Shown here piece after piece: positions 8,752 to 54,893 of a stretch of DNA of 55,066 bases. Source of the DNA: Neolecta irregularis DAH-3 (lineage: Eukaryota); assembly GCA_001929475.1 (NCBI GenBank), contig LXFE01000122.1:1-55066 (forward strand), given 5' to 3'. The notes beneath the pieces are model-generated. The model saw only the letters and a program-made list of their open reading frames with translations, did not search any database and was not told the DNA's origin. Both the position numbers and the translations under genes were made by a program. Every line of letters begins with the position of its first letter. Positions within the stretch are counted from its first letter, which is position 1.

Positions 8752-9671
8752 ATGCCAAAATTTTTGCTCCTCCTCTATCTCATCGGGACAACTATTGCCT
8801 TCACCGCTATGGATTTCAGCGACCCCACAGCCGCACTCGACATCACCAAATTGCGATACAGTTTAAATCGATTGGAGGATACCATCATCTTCCAATTGAT
8901 CGAGAGAGCCCAGTTTCCTGCCAATAACAAAATCTACCAGCCAGGAGCAATTCCAATTCCAGAATTCAGTGGCTCCTTTCTCGAGTATTTTCTGCATCAA
9001 ACCGAGTCATGTTATTGTCGTGTTCTAGTCCTTCAATAGACTGACATATTAGCATTGGTTCGCCGTTACCAGTCCCCGGCTGAGTATCCGTTCACCCTGA
9101 ATCTTCCGAATCCAATTCTACCGCCCTTGCATTTCCCACAGATCCTCCATCAGAATGATGTCAATGTCAACAGCAAAATTTTGGACTTTTACACTAAAGA
9201 AATTGTCCCTGAAATTTGTACTCCTGAATTCATAGAGTCCACTCTTGGCTCAAGCGCCGTAGCTGATGTTGAATGTCTTCAAACTATTAGTTATCGCATC
9301 CATTTAGGTACAAGAAACCCTTTGGCGGGGTTTGACTTGTAAGGAAAATTCGTTGCTGAAGCCAAGTATCTTGCAGATCCTGATACGTTTAATCCACTGA
9401 TCAAAAATCGAGACACCAAGGCATTAGAGGACTTGATTACTGCACCAAAGGTAGAGGCACAAGTTTTGAAGAGACTCGCCTCGAAAGCAAAGGCATACGG
9501 GCAGTTAGAGTGTGACGGTTGCCCGGTCGAAAATAAATTAAATGTGAGTGCTGTTATTTCCATGTACACCCGGCATATAATCTCCTTGACCAAACTTGTA
9601 GAGGTACGTATAATATTGCAGCGATATTTAACCATTGTTAGGTTGATTATCTGTTACAAAGACTTGATTGA
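8752..9671 (+). CDS. ARO7: Chorismate mutase (eukaryotic AroQ) with N-terminal signal-peptide-like extension
   Basis: LRYSLNRLEDTIIFQLIERAQF, RIHLGKFVAEAK, TKLVEVDYLLQRL. Introns 9017-9052, 9308-9343, 9604-9641. Conventional MDFS start at 8809; in-frame upstream ATG at 8752. Confidence 0.93.
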
Positions 9672-9832
9672 TGGGTTTAAAGAGAGTTTTCTGGCAAGAG
9701 GTGATATATTTTTCCCAGTTGAATGGTGGGAGAGATGGGTCAGTCCATAGTTCCAAGTGTTTTACAAGCCTTCTCTTTATTTATTTATAGCCTAACCTGG
9801 TGTGCTCCATGGGACTACCATAATTCTAGCAG

Positions 9833-11263
9833 CTACTCACGTTCTTGCCTTGCAGCTTGTTCTTCCTTTTCCAGCCTCTTTAAATCTTTGATTCCTAGAT
9901 CATCTTCTTGTTCTGGAGTGCGTTCCTTCAGTAAGTTTGACCATGAAAGAAGAGATGATACGTACATAGTCCTCTATCTCCATATTCGGATCTTTATCTG
10001 GTGCATATGGATTTTGAAGATGTGATGCGGCCAGGGGATCGTCTAGAATAACTGTGAATTTTCGCTTCCCTTCCTCAGCTTCGCTCAGGCCTGCTAGGAA
10101 CGATTCCCAGCGAGCTTTCTTTTCTGGATCTGTAGAATCTGATTCTTGCGAATACACTCTGCCATATAGTTCTGAATGAACTTGTTTCAATAAACCTTCG
10201 AGTGTAGTAAATCGTCCGCCAAGAGTACCGGGATGAAGATCCAACCCCAATTCTGGTATTGTCAGAGCACAGGTTTCGCTCTATTCCATCAACCAGGAAT
10301 CTCTACCAATCTGAAACCTGCCTTCAAAATATCTCTATTGAGATCTTCGGCATCTTCCACCTTCAAAATGATCTTTCTAGCCTTATCTGGGATTGCACCA
10401 CCCGTTTTCACCTCGTTACTTCTATAGCCACAAGAATCACAGGTAGTGCTCATCAGCACAACTTCTTTGAAATGCGGAATATCGACCATCTTCATCCTAG
10501 TGTCGCAGTGATGTTCGCAGGAAGGACACTTAGCGTTAAACGTGTGAACTTCTTCGGGCATAATTTCATCAGTAGTTAGACCTAAAGCCTTATTTTGCTC
10601 GCTGCTTCTGATGTAATCAGACCGAGTGAGACCTTTGGAAGATTCTCCAGGCATATATTCAATCCAACTATTACCAGAAGGATCATCAAGTATTATCGTA
10701 TAGCGTCCATCTTGGATGAGTTTTCGACCGCGGCATAGAAATTCTTCTATTTGCTCATAGTTCTTCGGGTCTTGATGTTTCCTGAGAGTCTGTCCAGCTT
10801 CTAAGTCCTCTAGAGCGGTAGCTAAGAGACCCTCCACAGTGGTGAGTTGACCTCTTTGAGGCGGTATTTCGAGATCAAGCTCTGGAATTGTTGATGTACA
10901 TGTTTCGGATTTAACTATTTGACGGTTCAGATCTGTCTTGGAGGATGTGTTGAAGATAAACCGAGCGCCTTTCTCTTGTATGATCCCAGCATTTTTAATC
11001 TCTGAGTTTTTCAACCCTGTTACTTAGAGAACTACTGCAGTAGACTGTACCACAATGAGGACACTCAAAAGACATTAACACAACTTCACGAAAATAGGGA
11101 ATTCGTGTTAGCAGTAATTTTGTAGTTCCCTAATCAGTTAACAATCATTTTCTATGATTGTTGGTAAATTTTCGTGACAATTCATGCATAGACTCTCGAT
11201 CTCAGTAGGGTTCTCGCCGTCTGCAACGGTCTGTCCGACATCCTGGAAGAGTTCCTGGGCCAT
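9833..11263 (-). CDS. ZPR1: Zinc finger protein ZPR1
   Basis: Two ZPR1 modules: [38 protein letters not shown] and CPSC...CDSCGYRSNEVKTGG; LGGRFTTLEGLL. Four introns, including 11130-11167 (non-canonical) and 10281-10321 (GC-AG). Confidence 0.95.
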
Positions 11264-11341
11264 GGCGGGACTTCCAAAAATGCACACTATGTCTACAGGG
11301 TTTCTGTTTTGCTCGTGACCTCAACACCAACTGATCCCTAT

Positions 11342-12779
11342 ATGAGAGTAGCCTTTATCCACCCAGACCTTGGAATTGGTTCGCACTTGCTGTATTTATA
11401 CCCTTATGCGATTCAGGCGGTGCAGAGAGACTCGTTGTCGATGCCGCAGTAGGTCTACAAAACCGCGGCCACCTCGTCACCGTTTATACATCCTACTGCG
11501 ATAGGAATCATTGTTTTGACGAAGTAAAAGACGGTACGGGCAGGACTTGTCATACCAATTTATGCAAAAGGCTCACTACATGTCCGAGTTTTGGGCGACT
11601 CGATATTCCCGACAAACATCTCTGGTCGGTTTGCACTCCTGTGTGCAATTCTTCGACAAATCCATCTTGTGATCGCGTTTCTACTTGACGGGACCCAGTA
11701 CGATGTCGTTTTTGTCGACCAGCTTTCAACATGTATCCCGCTGTTGAAATTGAAACACAAGGTCAAGGTTTTATTCTATTGCCATTTCCCGGATAAACTC
11801 CTTTCCAAAAAGGAAGGTCTGCTCAAACGACTTTATCGTCTACCGTTGGACTGGGTTGAAGAGTTCACTACTGGATGCGCGGACGACATAGTCGTAAATA
11901 GTAACTTCACAGCTAGTATCTTTCACGCCTCGTTCACTTCTATTAAAAGAATTCCAAGAGTCTTATATCCAGGGGTTGACATACCATCAAAAATGACATC
12001 TTATAGCGGCTTGCTCTCTGCAATTCAACAGTACTGAAATTTGACACTGGTCTTCATACTTACCAGATAGAGAGAAGTCTATATTCCTTTCACTCAATCG
12101 CTTCGAACGCAAAAAGAATATCAGTTTAGCGATATCGGCATACGCATCTCTGAAATGTCCGTCGAAATTCCAAAAGACCATGCTCGTAATTGCCGGCGGG
12201 TACGATTCTAGAGTAGCGGAGAACGTGGAGTATCACAAGGAACTCGATACATTCGCAACGAGCCTGGGATTGATTACAAAGACAATAGAATCTAGTTCAC
12301 CGGAATTTGATCTCTCAGATATAAACGTCTTGTTTCTTCCCTCTGTTTCATCTTCTGACAAGGCGGCATTACTTGAACGAGCTTCACTTTTGCTATATAC
12401 TCCATCCTTTGAACATTTCGGGATTGTTCCTCTAGAAGCTATGCTCGCTTGTACCCCTGTCCTCGCAATCAACAATGGTGGTCCACTCGAGACGATAGAA
12501 CACAATGTAACTGGTTGGCTTCAGGAAGAATCGACAAAACAATGGTCGTTGGTAATGGAAAAAGTGTTGGAGATGAATGCAACTGAATTAGAAAAGATGG
12601 GCCAAATGGGTCGTGAGAGTGTAATGTCAAGATTTTCGAAAGGAAATATGGCCAGGCAACTTGAGGAGAATCTGCAGGACATGAAGGAGCGTCCAGCAAA
12701 AACAGATTGGGTATTCTATGCGGGTTTAGGTCTTTTCATTGCATTATCGGTCTTGCTTTTGATACAGGTAATTGCCTAG
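11342..12779 (+). CDS. ALG2: Alpha-1,3/1,6-mannosyltransferase (GT4)
   Basis: [61 protein letters not shown]. Introns 11379-11416, 11534-11570, 12031-12070. Confidence 0.95.
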
Positions 12780-15277: not shown

Positions 15278-16782
15278 ATGAAGCAACTTCCCCCGATTAT
15301 CATGGACAAGTATCAAATTATTATTCGGTTGAAGTGCTGATATTTAGTGGAACCGGATTCACCAAGCTTGGGTATATCAGGTGCATAATTGGCTACTGAA
15401 TCCAGTTTTGCTGGTAACGATTCCCCATCCTTTGTTATTCCAACTGCAATTGCAACTCGGCAAGCTCCAGGGACAGCAGGCTCAGCATCTCGAACAATGG
15501 TGCCATCTAAACCGTCATCCCTATCCAGTGGTGGATTTTTGTCCTCGAAAAGAGGAACCGAAGACCTTGATTTTTTTATTGGCGATGAGGCAATTTCGCA
15601 GTCTAATAGCTCTGGATACGGATTAAGTTATCCGATTAGACACGGTCAGGTTGAAAATTGGGATCATATGGAACGGTTTTGGGAACAAAGTATCTTCAAA
15701 TATTTACGATGCGAACCAGAAGATCATCATTTCCTCTTGGAAAGTTTGGGTCTTGAAGCTTTTGGCTTATATGTAGACTGAACCTCCTTTGAATCCGCCT
15801 GAAAACAGGGAAAACACCGCGGAGATTATGTTTGAGTCGTTCAATTGTAAAGGACTATATATTGCCGTTCAGGCTGTTCTTGCGCTAGCCGCATCATGGA
15901 CATCGTCTAAAGTCCAAGACAGGTCTCTTACAGGAACAGTTATTGATTCCGGGGACGGAGTCACTCATGTAATACCTGTTGTACGTTGTGTTTGAGAGTT
16001 GCTGTTTTAATTCGATAGGCTGATGGTTACGTTATTGGATCTTCAATCAAGCATATCCCGATTGCGGGTCTTGATATCACACGATTTGTACAGTCTCTTC
16101 TTCGAGATCGGAATGAACCAGATTCGAGTCTTCGCACAGCAGAAAAGATTAAACAAGACTATTCGTACGTATGTCCGGATATTGTCAAGGAATTTGCAAG
16201 GTACGATCGCGATCCGGAACGGTTTCTTCAACATACCGTTGAAACTCCGTCTGGGAAGACAGTTGTGGTTGATGTTGGATTTGAGAGGTTTTTGGGACCC
16301 GAGATATTTTTCAATCCCGAGATTGCGAGTAGTGATTTTCCAACACCGCTGCCGGAGGTTGTGGACAGTGTTATTCAGAGTTCGCCGATTGATGTTCGCA
16401 GAGGGCTGTACAAGGTTTGTGGGACATGAGCGGCGGGCTGATTGCAGAACATTGTATTATCTGGCGGATCGACGCTGTTTGAAAACTTTGCGAAACGGCT
16501 GCACCGGGACATTAAACACATCGTGGAGGCGCGGATCCGCAAGAGCGAGGAGCTGTCTGGAGCCAAGAGCGGCGGCCTGGATGTGCAGGTGGTGAGTCAC
16601 AAGAAACAGCGAAACGCAGTGTGGTTTGGGGGCAGTTTATTGGCTCAGACGGTAACGAACGGGGATTTCAGGCTGCTAACGCGCAGCCCGAGTTTTTCTC
16701 GTACTGCCACACCAAGGCCGACTATGAAGAGTATGGGCCGTCTATTGCACGGCGTTACAATGTGTTTCAGAGTGCAGTGTAG
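15278..16782 (+). CDS. ARP3: Actin-related protein 3
   Basis: [81 protein letters not shown]. Six introns, including 15740-15776 (GA-AG). Confidence 0.97.
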
Positions 16783-26209: not shown

Positions 26210-27946
26210 ATGATAAATTCCCTTCGATTTATCAATCGAAGCCTGAAAAGATCAATTTTTTCCAGCAGTATGACTGCTATGGATGCGCCTGCCATTGCCG
26301 TTTCCTGTGCAAAAAGGGCGATCGAGTTCAACCGGCCTCAGCCTGCAAAGAAGAGGAGAAAGTTCGAAAAACGGGCTGTCAAGCAGGGATCGTCAGAAGA
26401 GATCATCGAACAGGATGTAAGAGCGCTTTTGGGTGAGATTATCGGAAGCGAGGTGAAAATAAAATTTGAGGAAATGGCCGAGACTAAGGAAGTGGAGGTA
26501 GAGATTGTAGAGCTTGGGTCACTGGGCATACCACGCTTGCAAATTTTTGCTTATTGAATCAGGAGAAGGGATGGCGGTCCTGGATGCAAACCATGTGGTT
26601 CTTGTGCCATTCACCGTTCCTGGGGATCGAGTGAAAGCGCGGCTATACAAGCGATTCGAGTACATTCTCGATACCACCGGCCTGTCTCATGGTTTAGACA
26701 CTACTCGCTCGCTGATCTGGTGTCGGTGCTCATACCGGCAGCGGAAAGAAACGACTCTTTGATTTGCTGCCCGTACTTTGCAAAGTGCAGCGGCTGCCAG
26801 TTGCAGATGCTTGGTTATGCGGTGAGTAACCTGCCCGTACAGCCAGCTCAGGCATAGCATCAATTGCTGCACAAGGAAAAGGTAGTGAAGCGCGCTTATG
26901 CTGCGTATCCATCGCTACAAAGACCAGAGATTCTGCCTACATGTGGATCGCCTTTGCAGTATAACTATCGCACGAAAATCACTCCTCATTTCGATATGCC
27001 GCGTAAGGACAGAGCAGAAGCGTTTGTACCAACAATTGGATTCAACAAAAAGGGCCGGCGATCGGTTTTAGATATAGAAGTATGCCCGATTGCTACCCCG
27101 GTTTTGAATGTTGGATTGAAAAAGTCAAGAGAGAACGTGCTCGCAGATATTTCAGCATTTAAACGGGGAGCTACTCTCTTGCTTCGTGAATCAACTGATC
27201 GCGTCAATTCAGACGATGGTATCTCTGACGAAAAGTTTTGTGTCACGGATCACAAGATCATTATCGATGAATATGTGGACAAGTATCACTTTCAATTTCC
27301 GGCTGGCAAATGGTTCTTCATACTCAGCTAATGGTTAGGTTCTTTCTTTCAAAATAACAACTCTATACTTCCTCTCTTGACAAACCATGTCAGAGAAAAC
27401 CTGTCATTCGAAGGTTCATGCCCAGAAATATTTCTGATAGATGCGTACTGCGGCTCTGGATTATTCAGTATCACCTGCAGTGAAGGTTTTAAAGAAGTTA
27501 TTGGCGTCGAAGTTTCAGCAGATAGCGTCAAATACGCAAAGCTCAATGCCAAAGCAAACAAGGTTCAAAATGCTCGTTTCATACTAGGTCGAGCTGAAAA
27601 AATATTTGAGGAAATCCAGTTCCCTTCGGAGCAGACTGCCATGATCATCGACCCCCCTCGTAAAGGCTGCGACGAAGCATTTCTGAACCAGCTACTCGAC
27701 TTCTCACCTAGACGCATTATTTATGTATCATGTAATGTCCATACCCAAGCTAGGGATCTTGCCTATATTACTCGTCATGACAAAGGCAATGGGTATATGA
27801 TAGATAGTATTCGTGGATTTGATCTATTCGTTTGTCATCGCTGTATTCATATGACTGATCAATAGCCTCAAACTTACCATGTGGAAGCCTGTGCAGTTTT
27901 ATCACGAAAGGAAAGCGTGCATTCGAATTCACAGGAAAGTATTTGA
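26210..27946 (+). CDS. TRM2: tRNA (uracil-54-C5)-methyltransferase
   Basis: CPYFAKCSGCQLQ, YNYRTKITPHF, SFFQNNNSIL, IDAYCGSGLF, IIDPPRKGC, YVSCNVHTQARD, FDLFPQTYHVE. Five introns, two of them GC-AG. Confidence 0.95.
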
Positions 27947-46018: not shown

Positions 46019-46985
46019 ACGAGGTTTATTTTGGTATATTTTGTATGCATGTTCAGATTGGTTTTCTTTTTTCAGTGGGAGATTATTACTGGGTTATAAG
46101 ACCACTAGCTAATATCAGGCTATTGTGTTTAAATGCAATCAATCTACAGGGCAGGGAGGCGATCCAGAGTGAGGTGACGTTTCAATCATTCCTACAACGA
46201 TCATTTTGATTTTGGCAGACCATCATTACTTTCACCTTGGGATTTTGAATCCAACTATGGTTATTTCCATTGAATCTCTCCAGTGGTCTTTGTTCTGGGA
46301 ATTGATTTCCATTTCTTGCCAACATCACTTTAGAGATTTGGCATGGCCGCATGGATCATGAGAAATTGTTAAATTACCCTAGGTGATTATATGAATATGT
46401 GAAATATACTTATCTTTAGTCTTTACTCTTCTTTCTCCGTGTCCCTCCTCCTGTCTCACTGTTCCTGTAAGTCTGTGTTCAGTACACAAATCTTGTGTTA
46501 GGCGAACCCATACTATATAGGCTTACAGTAATCCGGCATCGCAAGCCTTGTCCCCTGACTGGAGTCCTTTACTACCACTACCGTTGTGCTCAAGGTTCTT
46601 CATTTTCTTGGAGTCGATGGTCTGCTTACTCCAGATATATTCGATATATTTATAACAGGATCATCTTGGAAAATTTCAGCACGGTGATATGCGTGCATAA
46701 TATTCAAATGCTGTTTCGTTTGATCAGGTAGGCAGAAATGCTCAATATCAAATGGAAATCCTTTAGAATTTAAAACACACAAACGAACTCCTAGTTCTGA
46801 AAATAACTGGTAAGATGACAAGCAGATCTGACAAAGCAGAGTAGGAGAATCCAAGCCATCTGCTGGCTAGAGTCTAGAAAGGACCTCCTTGACAATTGTG
46901 GCATGTGTGATATTCCTGGCGAAGAGGGTGTTGAGAACTAAACAATTATAGGATAATCTTAAATATCTGTTGGTTTAGTACACTG

Positions 46986-48006
46986 TTACATATCCTCGGT
47001 AGACCATCCGTACGCCTACAATCAGTAGAGCTTGCGAAGAGAGAGAACATACCGCTTCTTCCCGAAGCTTTACTTCATTCTGCTTTGTGAAATATTGTTT
47101 TTCAAACCCATTTGAGCGATCTACGCCGTCCCAACGATACCCAGGCAAAACTCCAAACCGATTTGGCATAGAAGCGCCCTTGAATGTTGACTCTGTATTG
47201 GCCTTTCCGTCTTTGGTTTTGCCTTTGGTACTGAGAAATGAAGCGGCGGGATCATTCCAACGTTCTCGGGATTTAAGTTCTTCATTCATTACGATATCAT
47301 CTACTGTCCTGAATAATTAGACCCACGGTTTACTTTTGAATCATACCGAGCAAACGGCACGGCTTTGATCTCTTGAAGCTGCTTTCGCCGTTCTTCCTTC
47401 TCGCGCTGCTGAACCACACCCATTCCTAATTCTTTTTCCTTCTTTTTCCTGGCTTCTTCGGCTTCGAGTTTCTTTCTGGCTTCGGCTCTTTGAAGCGCAA
47501 CATCCACCCGTCGTCCCGTAGCATCACGATAAATGGTCTCCGCACCTCGTCCATTCATAGTCGGGTCCTCTTTCATATACCTCCTTCTATCCTCGTCTTG
47601 TTGTTGCGCTAGATTACGACTCACTTGTTCGGCTGTATGTAACCCCATAACAGTTCTCAATTCATCAGTATCTTGTCCAACGATCTCTGGTTGCTCGTCG
47701 TCGGCAATCTTTTGACTTTCTTGAACAGTTTCCCAATTCGAACGCTCCGCAGCGGCAAAGGATTTTGGGTTTGCCGAGTCTAAAGCATTCTCGACTACAA
47801 TGTTTAAAGTTTCATTCTTTGATTTGAAACTCACGAACTACTGCATCCTCCACATCGTCTTGACCTCCGCTATGAACGACCTCCCATCCCATAGCTTCAT
47901 TATCATCGATCCTCAGAGCACTTTCTTCTTCCTTCTTCCTCCGCTTTTTCTTCTTTGGATCGTCCTTTGTCAAATAATTCTTCGCTAGATAGTCCGCCAG
48001 AGACAT
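46986..48006 (-). CDS. BUD13: Pre-mRNA splicing factor Cwc26/Bud13 (RES complex)
   Basis: [53 protein letters not shown]. Three introns. Confidence 0.95.
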
Positions 48007-52472: not shown

Positions 52473-54893
52473 ATGATTCTTACAGGGTCTTCTGGGAACT
52501 ACCGCAATTCTGTATGCGGTTATTTACCTATTGAGAACTACGGTTTAATCGGGAATCTCAGAACCGCCGCTCTGATTGGAATCGATGGATCTTGCGACTT
52601 TCTGTGTCTCCCCTATTTTAGTTCCCCTTCAGTATTCTGCAGATTGCTAGATAAAGAAAAGGGAGGTTACTTCAGTATCACACCGTTACATGAAACCACG
52701 TCGAAACAGCAGTATTTGCCATCAACTTGCATTCTCGCGACCAAATTCCTCAGCGAAGAAGGAGTATCGCAAATCACAGACTTCTTTCCTCGACCTGCGA
52801 AATGTGGAGAAACGTTATTCCCTTGGATGGTTCGGAGAGCCGAATGCATACGCGGTGATGTTACGCTCAAGGTTGAGATATTCCCTGCTTTCGATTACGC
52901 TCGTGCCAAGCATGATCTTACAATGTCGAATGGAAAGATTTTATTCTGGAGTGAAGATGCCCAAACAGGTCTAGAATTATCTTATTTAGCAGAGGACAAC
53001 GAGGAAGAGTGTAATCCCGAAGTCAATTTTGGTATGAGGCAATCCATGTCTTTAAATCAGCCTAAGACCTTGTAGAAGTTGTTTCCCAAAAAGGGCTTCT
53101 TAGTGCGGGTGCTATAGCCCATATTACTCTCACAGAAGGTCAAGCAGTAACATTTTCTATACGTATGTTCAACATCGTTTTGCGTCCTCATGTAAAGGTC
53201 AACTCCATACCCCGTCCAGTCAGCCAGAAGCGCATCTTTCTGAAAAATTAGTTCAAAAGCTACAAGCAGATACTCAAACCTACTGGGGGGCTTGGATTAT
53301 GAAATCAAACTACAGAGGCCGATGGCAAGAGTTCATCATTCGATCGGCATTGACGCTCAAACTTCTTACGTTCGAGCTCACTGGAGCAGTCATTGCATCA
53401 CCTACATTCTCGCTTCCTGAATCAGTATCAGGAGCTAGGAACTGGGATTATCGATATACTTGGATTCGAGATAGCGCTTTTACAGTTTATGCATTTCTCA
53501 GACTGGGATTTATCGAAGAAGCAGATGCTTATATGAAATGGATCGAAGGTCGTATGGAGCATCGGAACCCAGTTGGCGACGAACGCGGCCCTATTAACAT
53601 CATGTACACAGTATGGGGGACTTCAGATATCGAGGAACATGAGTTGAGTCACCTTGAGGGCTATAAGTCGAGTGCACCCGTAAGAATTGGAAATGGCGCT
53701 AGCGAGCATCTTCAGTTGGATATTTATGGGGAACTGATGGATGCCATCTATCTCTATCATCGAGTGTGTATCAGCAGTTAATCTCAATTCTAACTGACAA
53801 GCTCGGGCGTCCGATCAGTTATTCTATGTGGTGCCACGTTCGGGTTCTCTGTGATTGGTGCTTTCATTTGAGAGATGTATGAAGGCTAAATGCAACAGGG
53901 TTGTGGACAATTGGGGAAGAGGAGATATGTCTATTTGGGAAGTAAGGTCCCAAAAGATGGTGTGCCTTCCTCTGGTGAATGCTGACGGGTGACCCTAGAA
54001 GCAGTTTACGTATTCGAAAGTGATGCTGTGGGTAGCTCTCGATCGGGGTCTTCGACTTGCTGACAAGAGATCGTTCCCATGCCCACATCGTCATATGTAC
54101 GCTTGGTCGTGGATTTCTCTGACAGTAGATGGTTGAAGACGCGAGATACGATATATGAAGTTATAATGACAAAAGGCTGGAATGAGAAGATGAATGTGCA
54201 TCTTCTCATGCTATACTAAAGCTTACTTGCAGTGCTTCATACAAGCTTTCGAAGAGCCCGAGATTTTAGATTCTGCAGTTCTTAGTATATTCCTAGCCTT
54301 TATTCCGCTGATAGCAGTTATGCCGCTTGTCTTTTTCATTTCTCCCAATGATCCGCGGTTTGTCTCTACTATCAAGCAGATTTTAAAACCACCCGAGAAA
54401 GGCGGGTTGACTTCCAATGGCCTAGTATTCAGGTGTATGACACTAGATTGAGCAAAACCTTGACACAGCAGATAATCATTTGAGGGCCCATGACGGTGTG
54501 GGAGGAGGAGAAGGAAGTTTCTCGATGTGCACATTCTGGCTAGTCGAAGCTATGACCAGAGCAGGTCAATATGACCGGGAGATGCTTGCAGCCGCAGTTC
54601 GCATGTTTGAAGATATGGTATGATCAGCTGACTTTATTGTCGTTCATGATTAGTTGGGCTATGCGAATCATTTATTCTTATACAGTGAAGAGATTGCACG
54701 AAGTGGAGAAAGTTTAGGGAACTTTCCTCAAGCCTTGTGAGTTATACTTTTGCTTTTTTTTATCAGACTAATGGGTTTGCAGCACTCATATCGCGTGTAT
54801 TTCAAGTGAGAGTTCTTTCTGAATTATTGTCTAACAGAAACAGCGGCATTTAACCTTGATCGAGTGCTGAGTGGCATTCGACGAGCTGATTGA
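52473..54893 (+). CDS. Glycoside hydrolase family 15 (glucoamylase/trehalase-like)
   Basis: [75 protein letters not shown]. About 12 introns; 5' end uncertain. Confidence 0.92.

Follow-up and report, generated by a model that had tools for sequence, protein, structure and literature searches.

Introns that deviate from the GT-AG rule

The first base of nuclear introns, G(+1), is their most conserved base; it becomes joined to the branch adenosine and pairs with the last base of the intron, also a G, during exon ligation. When G(+1) was mutated experimentally in introns of yeast and mammals (work attributed to Newman in 1985, Aebi in 1987, and Parker and Siliciano in 1993), splicing reportedly came to a halt mostly ahead of exon ligation. 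In the ZPR1 gene described here, intron 1 has a similar first-base substitution, but ligated mRNA is observed. The pairing of G(+1) with the 3' G(-1) is present in the post-catalytic (P complex) spliceosome of yeast, and its authors state that mutation of any invariant nucleotide impairs mRNA formation (bioRxiv 10.1101/212811). AT-AC introns share a first base other than G with ZPR1 intron 1, but their last base co-varies (A...C), while intron 1 combines U(+1) with an unchanged G(-1), a pair that is not modelled in that structural report (10.1101/212811).

A constitutive TT-AG junction has been reported for human ETV1 (Parada et al. 2014, PMC4176328). ETV1 and ZPR1 intron 1 have in common the TT-AG termini, their location in a protein-coding gene, and the fact that both are missed by junction mappers limited to GT-AG, GC-AG, and AT-AC. 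The ETV1 intron is found in a vertebrate and is long, as usual there, whereas ZPR1 intron 1 is fungal, only 38 nt long, and located in an essential housekeeping gene. The latter also differs from the ETV1 case by its weak match at +4 to +6 and by an internal hairpin. GC-AG and GA-AG introns of the U2 type are known from FGFR genes, and GA-AG introns are abundant in Oikopleura dioica and Eurytemora affinis (PMC7072748). These classes resemble the introns discussed below in having a non-GU 5' end combined with a normal AG, two GC-AG introns and one GA-AG candidate being present in the DNA analysed. They alter position +2 and keep G(+1), while ZPR1 intron 1 alters +1, the site of branching and the partner of the 3' G.

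The ZPR1 gene and its product

The window, i.e., the whole stretch of DNA that was analysed (55,066 nt), originates from Neolecta irregularis DAH-3, an early-diverging ascomycete. ZPR1 is a housekeeping gene that is essential in yeasts. It is located on the minus strand of the window and runs from the ATG at 11263 to the TAG at 9835-9833 (coding region 9833..11263; 425 codons plus TAG, based on Pfam, homolog alignment, and a check of the coding sequence), and is split into five exons by four introns, each 34-41 nt long. Exon 1 (11168..11263, minus strand, as are all parts of the gene) extends from the ATG to ...CMNCHEN and encodes the first CxxC of the N-terminal zinc ribbon. Exon 2 (11051..11129; GTTKLLL...CPHCG) encodes the second CxxC and matches positions 16-43 of the 56 of Pfam Zn_ribbon_ZPR1. 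Exons 3 (10322..11016) and 4 (9966..10280) were delimited using Pfam, homolog alignment, and a contig from sequencing run X2 (see below), and exon 5 (9833..9925) includes the stop codon. Intron 1 (11130..11167; 38 nt, TT...AG, phase 0) is placed by both the X2 joint and a homology solver, as are the GT-AG introns 2 (11017..11050; 34 nt) and 4 (9926..9965; 40 nt). Intron 3 (10281..10321; 41 nt) is of the GC-AG type (AAG|GCAGGT); the X2 joint 10280->10322 has the ends 'CT..GC', and the top score of the solver is for DILK|SETC.

Pfam searches with the exon-sized open frames returned the zinc ribbon Zn_ribbon_ZPR1 and the jelly-roll jr-ZPR1; PF03367 and PF22794 match on exons 2, 3, and 4, in line with the two Zn_ribbon_ZPR1 and jelly-roll modules of the family. 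A protein search revealed P0001 (426 aa, 90% identity) as the closest relative, followed by Saitoella and Taphrina proteins (59% and 58%, respectively). Identity to P0001 is 90-96% across the exons and drops to 67% only in exon 5, which is short; exon 3 shares 59% identity with its Saitoella counterpart. All four junctions were fixed to the residue by seven full-length homologs: HEN|GTT, CPHCG|LKN, DILK|SETC, and EDY|ERT. The spliced five-exon coding sequence is 1278 nt long and contains 425 codons and a single stop, which is terminal. Compared with the transcript of a relative (L001), the gene has a nucleotide identity of 86%, 380 of 425 residues are identical, and dN/dS is 0.099. The spliced mRNA encodes a full ZPR1 of 425 aa with a complete N-terminal zinc ribbon, and is under purifying selection. 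That the locus might be a pseudogene was considered and set aside in view of the dN/dS value and the number of residues kept. Both the L001 and X2 contigs extend from ZPR1 into the convergent neighbour gene (L001:1309-2226; window 8793-9700), as the two 3' ends overlap or abut and are fused by unstranded assemblies.

Removal of intron 1 from the ZPR1 transcript

The preliminary description of this DNA had proposed a TT-AG intron of 38 nt at 11167-11130 (minus strand), flanked as TGT CAC GAA AAT | TTACCAACAATCATAGAAAATGATTGTTAACTGATTAG | GGA ACT ACA. The letters are exactly so. Read-through would end, as was claimed, at a TAA (11140-11138), the open reading frame 11138-11320 terminating in ...ENLPTIIENDC, and the lone GT inside the intron indeed begins a tail of 13 nt, GTTAACTGATTAG. 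Removal of the 38 nt joins CMNCHEN to GTTKLLL, the conserved sequence that had been foreseen; all seven aligned full-length homologs are continuous at this site.

Two sequencing runs cover the locus, namely X1 (DNA, share 1.00), which may be the window's own source, and X2, the kind of which was guessed as 'DNA?' by the tool used. The X1 contig (4304 nt, word depth 428) is collinear with 9700-11450 and represents the unspliced form, with 0 differences, 0 gaps, and 0 joints. Record 2 of X2 (2419 nt, depth 111.5) is identical to the locus in exons and UTR, with 0 other letters in the ZPR1 exons, and skips exactly all four introns. It starts at 11296, 33 nt upstream of the ZPR1 ATG; the intergenic stretch 11297-11415 is not covered by X2, the next contig of which begins at 11416, at the divergent ALG2-like gene. 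None of the X2 contigs retains ZPR1 introns. X2 thus behaves like a transcript library, its kind being only a guess of the tool. The RNA support consists of one assembled contig from one run, and contigs are blind to splicing efficiency, intron retention, and a minor G allele.

At intron 1, the X2 contig is precisely joined from 11129 to 11168, with 38 nt skipped, ends CT..AA, 80 nt on the shorter side, and 0 letters shared by the two sides ('both = 0'). Because no letters are shared, the border cannot slide and the ends on the gene strand are TT..AG. This excludes the fallback donor GAAAAT, 6 nt upstream, that had been put forward in the preliminary description. It also speaks against this copy of ZPR1 being simply unspliced. 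An antisense GT-AG transcript was ruled out as the source of the joint, since the complement of TT-AG is CT-AA.

A homology-scored enumeration of donor/acceptor deletions of 25-130 nt that keep the frame and are free of stops placed TT-AG at 11167-11130 first among 781 candidates (score 630, the next being 618), none of which was a GT-AG or GC-AG pair. The same solver recovered the three other RNA-proven ZPR1 introns, i.e., the GT-AG introns 2 and 4 and the GC-AG intron 3. It once falsely reported that a canonical solution was lacking, in a kinase gene in which reading of the sequence gave GT-AG at 34367-34331. The exact skip in the X2 contig and the top rank of the solver together confirm the TT-AG intron in ZPR1, and the interpretation given to it in the preliminary description is supported.

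It is highly improbable that mis-assembly or template switching by reverse transcriptase created the joint in X2 artificially, or that it stems from a DNA retrocopy instead of RNA. One might suspect this, as a single contig from a run of guessed kind is involved, but template switching requires shared letters, of which there are none at the joint. In addition, the conserved reading frame is recovered exactly once the 38 nt are deleted, and the same contig lacks three ordinary introns at their exact borders; a retrocopy would itself derive from an mRNA spliced at TT-AG.

Even less probable, and very nearly negligible, is the alternative that the T at +1 arose by faulty sequencing or assembly and that the true donor is GTACCA. 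The base is a single change away from a donor of the GTAC type, with which eight of 37 local donors start. The GTACCA hexamer itself had been said to serve as a donor elsewhere in the window; this part of the claim found no support, as it occurs at 16 sites in the window and at none of the donors of the 37 introns analysed. An independent re-assembly of X1 (Logan contig) gave the same base, T, and the X1 contig holds 0 other letters at 11167, where a C on the plus strand would have created a GT. X1 may be the source of the window, so that this agreement need not be independent evidence for the T at +1.

Alternatively, G(+1) could persist unseen in another allele, nucleus, or gene copy that gives rise to the spliced mRNA, with the T(+1) copy being non-functional or unspliced. 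The +1 base is absent from the spliced product, so that the origin of the latter cannot be read from it, and rare variants get dropped from contigs. Nevertheless, this explanation is unlikely: X1 contains a single record at >=90% likeness on a 1751-nt stretch, unbroken over its 4304 nt and with 0 differences, two protein searches yielded one ZPR1 of this organism, and X2 is devoid of an intron-holding contig although the T form dominates the DNA. Moreover, an essential gene would by coincidence have to carry a null allele in its T(+1) copy, and a general tolerance is favoured by the GA donor (in ARP3) and the two GC donors that occur within these 55 kb. The same X1 record and protein searches also speak against a second intact ZPR1 copy, the existence of which had been named as a possible objection.

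Loci L002-L031 are all continuous over the site of intron 1; having been retrieved through the uninterrupted peptide pattern CMNCHENG, they are biased against an intron at this position and uninformative on its age. L001 is a spliced transcript contig, in which an intron of the relative itself would be invisible.

Intron 1 in comparison with the local introns

A total of 37 introns were pinned in the window, a non-random sample of junctions that can be fixed by homology. They comprise the four RNA-pinned introns of ZPR1, six in ARP3 (via a 93% identical relative protein), two in the chorismate-mutase-like neighbour (via a relative's transcript), 12 in a GH15-like gene (via homologs of ~60% identity), 11 pinned via continuity of Pfam profiles, and two, the first intron of ALG2 and one in a TRM2-like gene, by reading conserved motifs. 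When a canonical and a non-canonical border were within one residue in score, the canonical one was chosen. No counts were taken from scans based on codon-usage ORF rescue, which was overly strict, on open frames, which were too noisy with 517 plus-strand candidates, or on motif refinement, which drifted and lost two RNA-proven introns. Pairing of long ORFs yielded mostly antisense shadows and was of use only as a pointer to the GC-AG intron in the TRM2-like gene.

The local introns are 32-46 nt long (median 37, n=37), and the 38 nt of ZPR1 intron 1 fit in this range. All 37 terminate with AG; intron 1 ends in UAG (11132-11130), the AG following a pyrimidine. The branch-like motif TTAAC (11137..11141, minus strand) places a putative branch A, based on the motif, 9 nt from the 3' end at 11138. 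In 28 of the 37 introns, YTNAY is present with its A located 4-16 nt, usually 7-9 nt, ahead of the 3' end, so that intron 1 has the local spacing as judged by motif. The local 5' consensus is weak, roughly (A)G|GTA followed by mostly C or T. Intron 1 shares +3A with 16 and +4C with 11 of 24 local donors. It departs from them at +1, having UU (11167-11166) in place of GU, and carries minority choices at -1 (T) and +5 (C). Its match to the U1-type consensus is poor at -1, +5, and +6.

A perfect 9-bp hairpin, AACAATCAT / AGAAA / ATGATTGTT (11140..11162, minus strand), is located within intron 1 between its 5' end and the branch motif. It has a predicted stability of -7.9 kcal/mol (z -4.47), which was equalled by 0 of 200 shuffled sequences, and its sequence is unique in the window. 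The base of the stem is 5 nt from the 5' end of the intron, and the branch A is 2 nt away on the other side. Among 23 other introns folded, one (CM_b) is structured to the same degree, whereas the GA-AG intron is less so. Since the hairpin is not confined to odd introns, a helper role is only a guess. The GT-AG intron of the chorismate-mutase-like neighbour at 9308-9343 (plus strand, 36 nt) carries a strong hairpin of -12.7 kcal/mol (z ~-3), which shows that structured ultrashort introns are not limited to the TT-AG case.

Introns cleaved by Ire1 have both junctions in 7-nt loops, CNG|CNGN, of twin stem-loops. Like ZPR1 intron 1, the HAC1/XBP1 intron belongs to an mRNA, lacks GT-AG termini, and contains RNA structure. 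Removal of the 38 nt by an endonuclease and a ligase, as for HAC1/XBP1 or tRNA introns and perhaps guided by the hairpin, could thus be envisaged in view of the non-canonical 5' end and the significant internal hairpin. It is very unlikely, as the junction motifs and twin stem-loops of HAC1/XBP1 are absent: the junctions AAU|UUA and UAG|GGA do not fit the Ire1 loop sites, and the one strong helix lies inside the intron. Furthermore, a fold of 81 nt does not display a bulge-helix-bulge across the junctions, and in length, branch motif, and terminal AG intron 1 matches the spliceosomal introns nearby.

The consensus of U12-type introns consists of a 5' box [AG]TATCCTT and a branch box TCCTTAAC, and the minor spliceosome is not known from ascomycetes. 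It is barely conceivable, and the least probable of the alternatives discussed here, that intron 1 is of this type. Its 5' end, TTACCAAC, is without the 5' box, and in its branch region, GATTGTTAAC, GATTG and not TCC precedes TTAAC, although TTAAC by itself forms part of the U12 branch consensus. Unusual terminal dinucleotides are tolerated by U12 introns (PMC4176328), which would speak for such an assignment.

Intron 1 is like the local introns in length, branch motif, and +3A/+4C, and is therefore read as a U2-type intron with a U at +1. In our opinion, it is very probably a genuine spliceosomal intron of this type (UU...AG) that is constitutively removed. Spliceosomal chemistry is what we infer from its likeness to the neighbouring introns. 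Recognition would then proceed as for the other ultrashort introns (32-46 nt) of this genome. Given that the 5' consensus is weak beyond GTA, it is probably length, branch motif (UUAAC, A at -9), and UAG together that define intron 1 as one unit. U(+1) would have to be tolerated by the local spliceosome in both catalytic steps, exon ligation included, and the 9-bp hairpin may, speculatively, pre-position the 5' end and the branch A. What counts against this U2-type reading is the G(+1)/G(-1) pairing in the yeast P complex, which implies that an intron with U(+1) should splice poorly. As a U(+1) intron that occurs naturally, seems to be spliced efficiently, and belongs to a single-copy essential gene, it offers a ready substrate for probing the limits of the G(+1) rule, all the more so in a genome with introns of 32-46 nt and a weak 5' consensus. 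A search of the 55,066-nt window against Rfam gave 0 matches, and no snRNA genes were found in it. Bud13, a subunit of the RES splicing complex, is encoded at 46978-47837 (minus strand); the gene appears intact and has an ordinary GT-AG intron at 47346-47309.

Other non-GT introns in the window

The 37 pinned introns comprise 33 GT-AG, two GC-AG, one TT-AG, and one GA-AG intron. The last of these is intron 3 of ARP3 (15740-15776, plus strand, 37 nt), which was placed by homology only and reads GA-AG (GAAAGT...TATGTAG) or, with a slide of 1 nt, GG-TA. Its position is the sole one that gives HHFLL|TEPPLN, and the homology solver found no GT-AG or GC-AG pair among 695 candidates. The sequence GAAAGT is one base away from GTAAGT. 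The GC-AG intron outside ZPR1 is a probable one of 33 nt at 27306-27338 (plus strand), CTG|GCAAAT...CTAATGGTTAG, which joins FQFPAG to SFFQNN in a gene for a TRM2-like tRNA (uracil-5) methyltransferase; it was placed by what we take to be a motif of this family. The exon downstream of it gave a Pfam match, and a PDB search with the TRM2-like exon returned 0 matches.

In fungal annotation surveys, GT-AG introns make up 98.715%, GC-AG introns 1.009%, and 'other' introns 0.257% (PMC7072748, Table 1). If this average rate, as given there, applied, the probability of finding at least two 'others' in 37 introns would be 0.004, that of at least one in 36, with the index case left out, 0.09, and that of at least two among a guessed 100 introns in the window 0.03. 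These values hint at a raised rate of non-canonical introns in this genome, short of a demonstration. That the spliceosome of this fungus is generally less strict about GU, such that several percent of the ultrashort introns start with UU, GA, or GC, is a tentative proposal that we consider possible but somewhat doubtful. The Neolecta genome contains 5,546 genes with 4.3 introns each, or roughly 24,000 introns (PMC5309816). Should the proposal be true, hundreds of these would be non-canonical and many public models, made with canonical-only tools, would be wrong. The possibility of relaxed 5' splice-site rules among ultrashort introns is a more interesting lead than this single intron. In the GH15-like gene, which has a trehalase-like N-terminal domain and at least 12 introns, a micro-exon of 23 nt (54783-54805, plus strand) encodes FTHIACIS; it is flanked by the GT-AG introns 54737-54782 and 54806-54837.

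Public gene models

The class to which ZPR1 intron 1 belongs is known, though rare; the intron itself is new for this organism and missing from its public annotation. In the literature searched, the genome paper included, no statement was found on non-canonical introns in N. irregularis; the words 'intron', 'splice', and 'splicing' have 0 matches in the main text of that paper (PMC5309816). Its supplement, from which the 4.3 introns per gene were taken, cites TopHat (PMC5309816), a program that maps canonical junctions only, according to PMC4176328.

The two public models that were compared with proteins of relatives, those of ZPR1 and ARP3, are both wrong at the non-GT introns. The ZPR1 model P0243, 'Zinc finger protein zpr1 [Neolecta irregularis DAH-3]', has 375 aa, compared to the 425 found here. 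It begins with MSFECPHCG inside exon 2, so that exon 1 and most of exon 2 are missing, and it uses GT-AG elsewhere in place of the GC-AG intron 3 (10281-10321, minus strand). As a result, its sequence is DILK-AGFRLVEIPE-LGLDL, in contrast to DILK-SETCALTIPE-LGLDL in the transcript contig and every homolog. P0243 avoids both non-GT introns of ZPR1; it is 50 residues short, including half a zinc ribbon, and 10 more residues are mis-read. Comparative studies on this proteome inherit such errors. The ARP3 model of N. irregularis DAH-3, P0121 (415 aa), reads through a stretch of 16 residues and has lost ~32 conserved residues; these are encoded intact in the window from 15777 onwards and are present in the protein of a relative, P0122.
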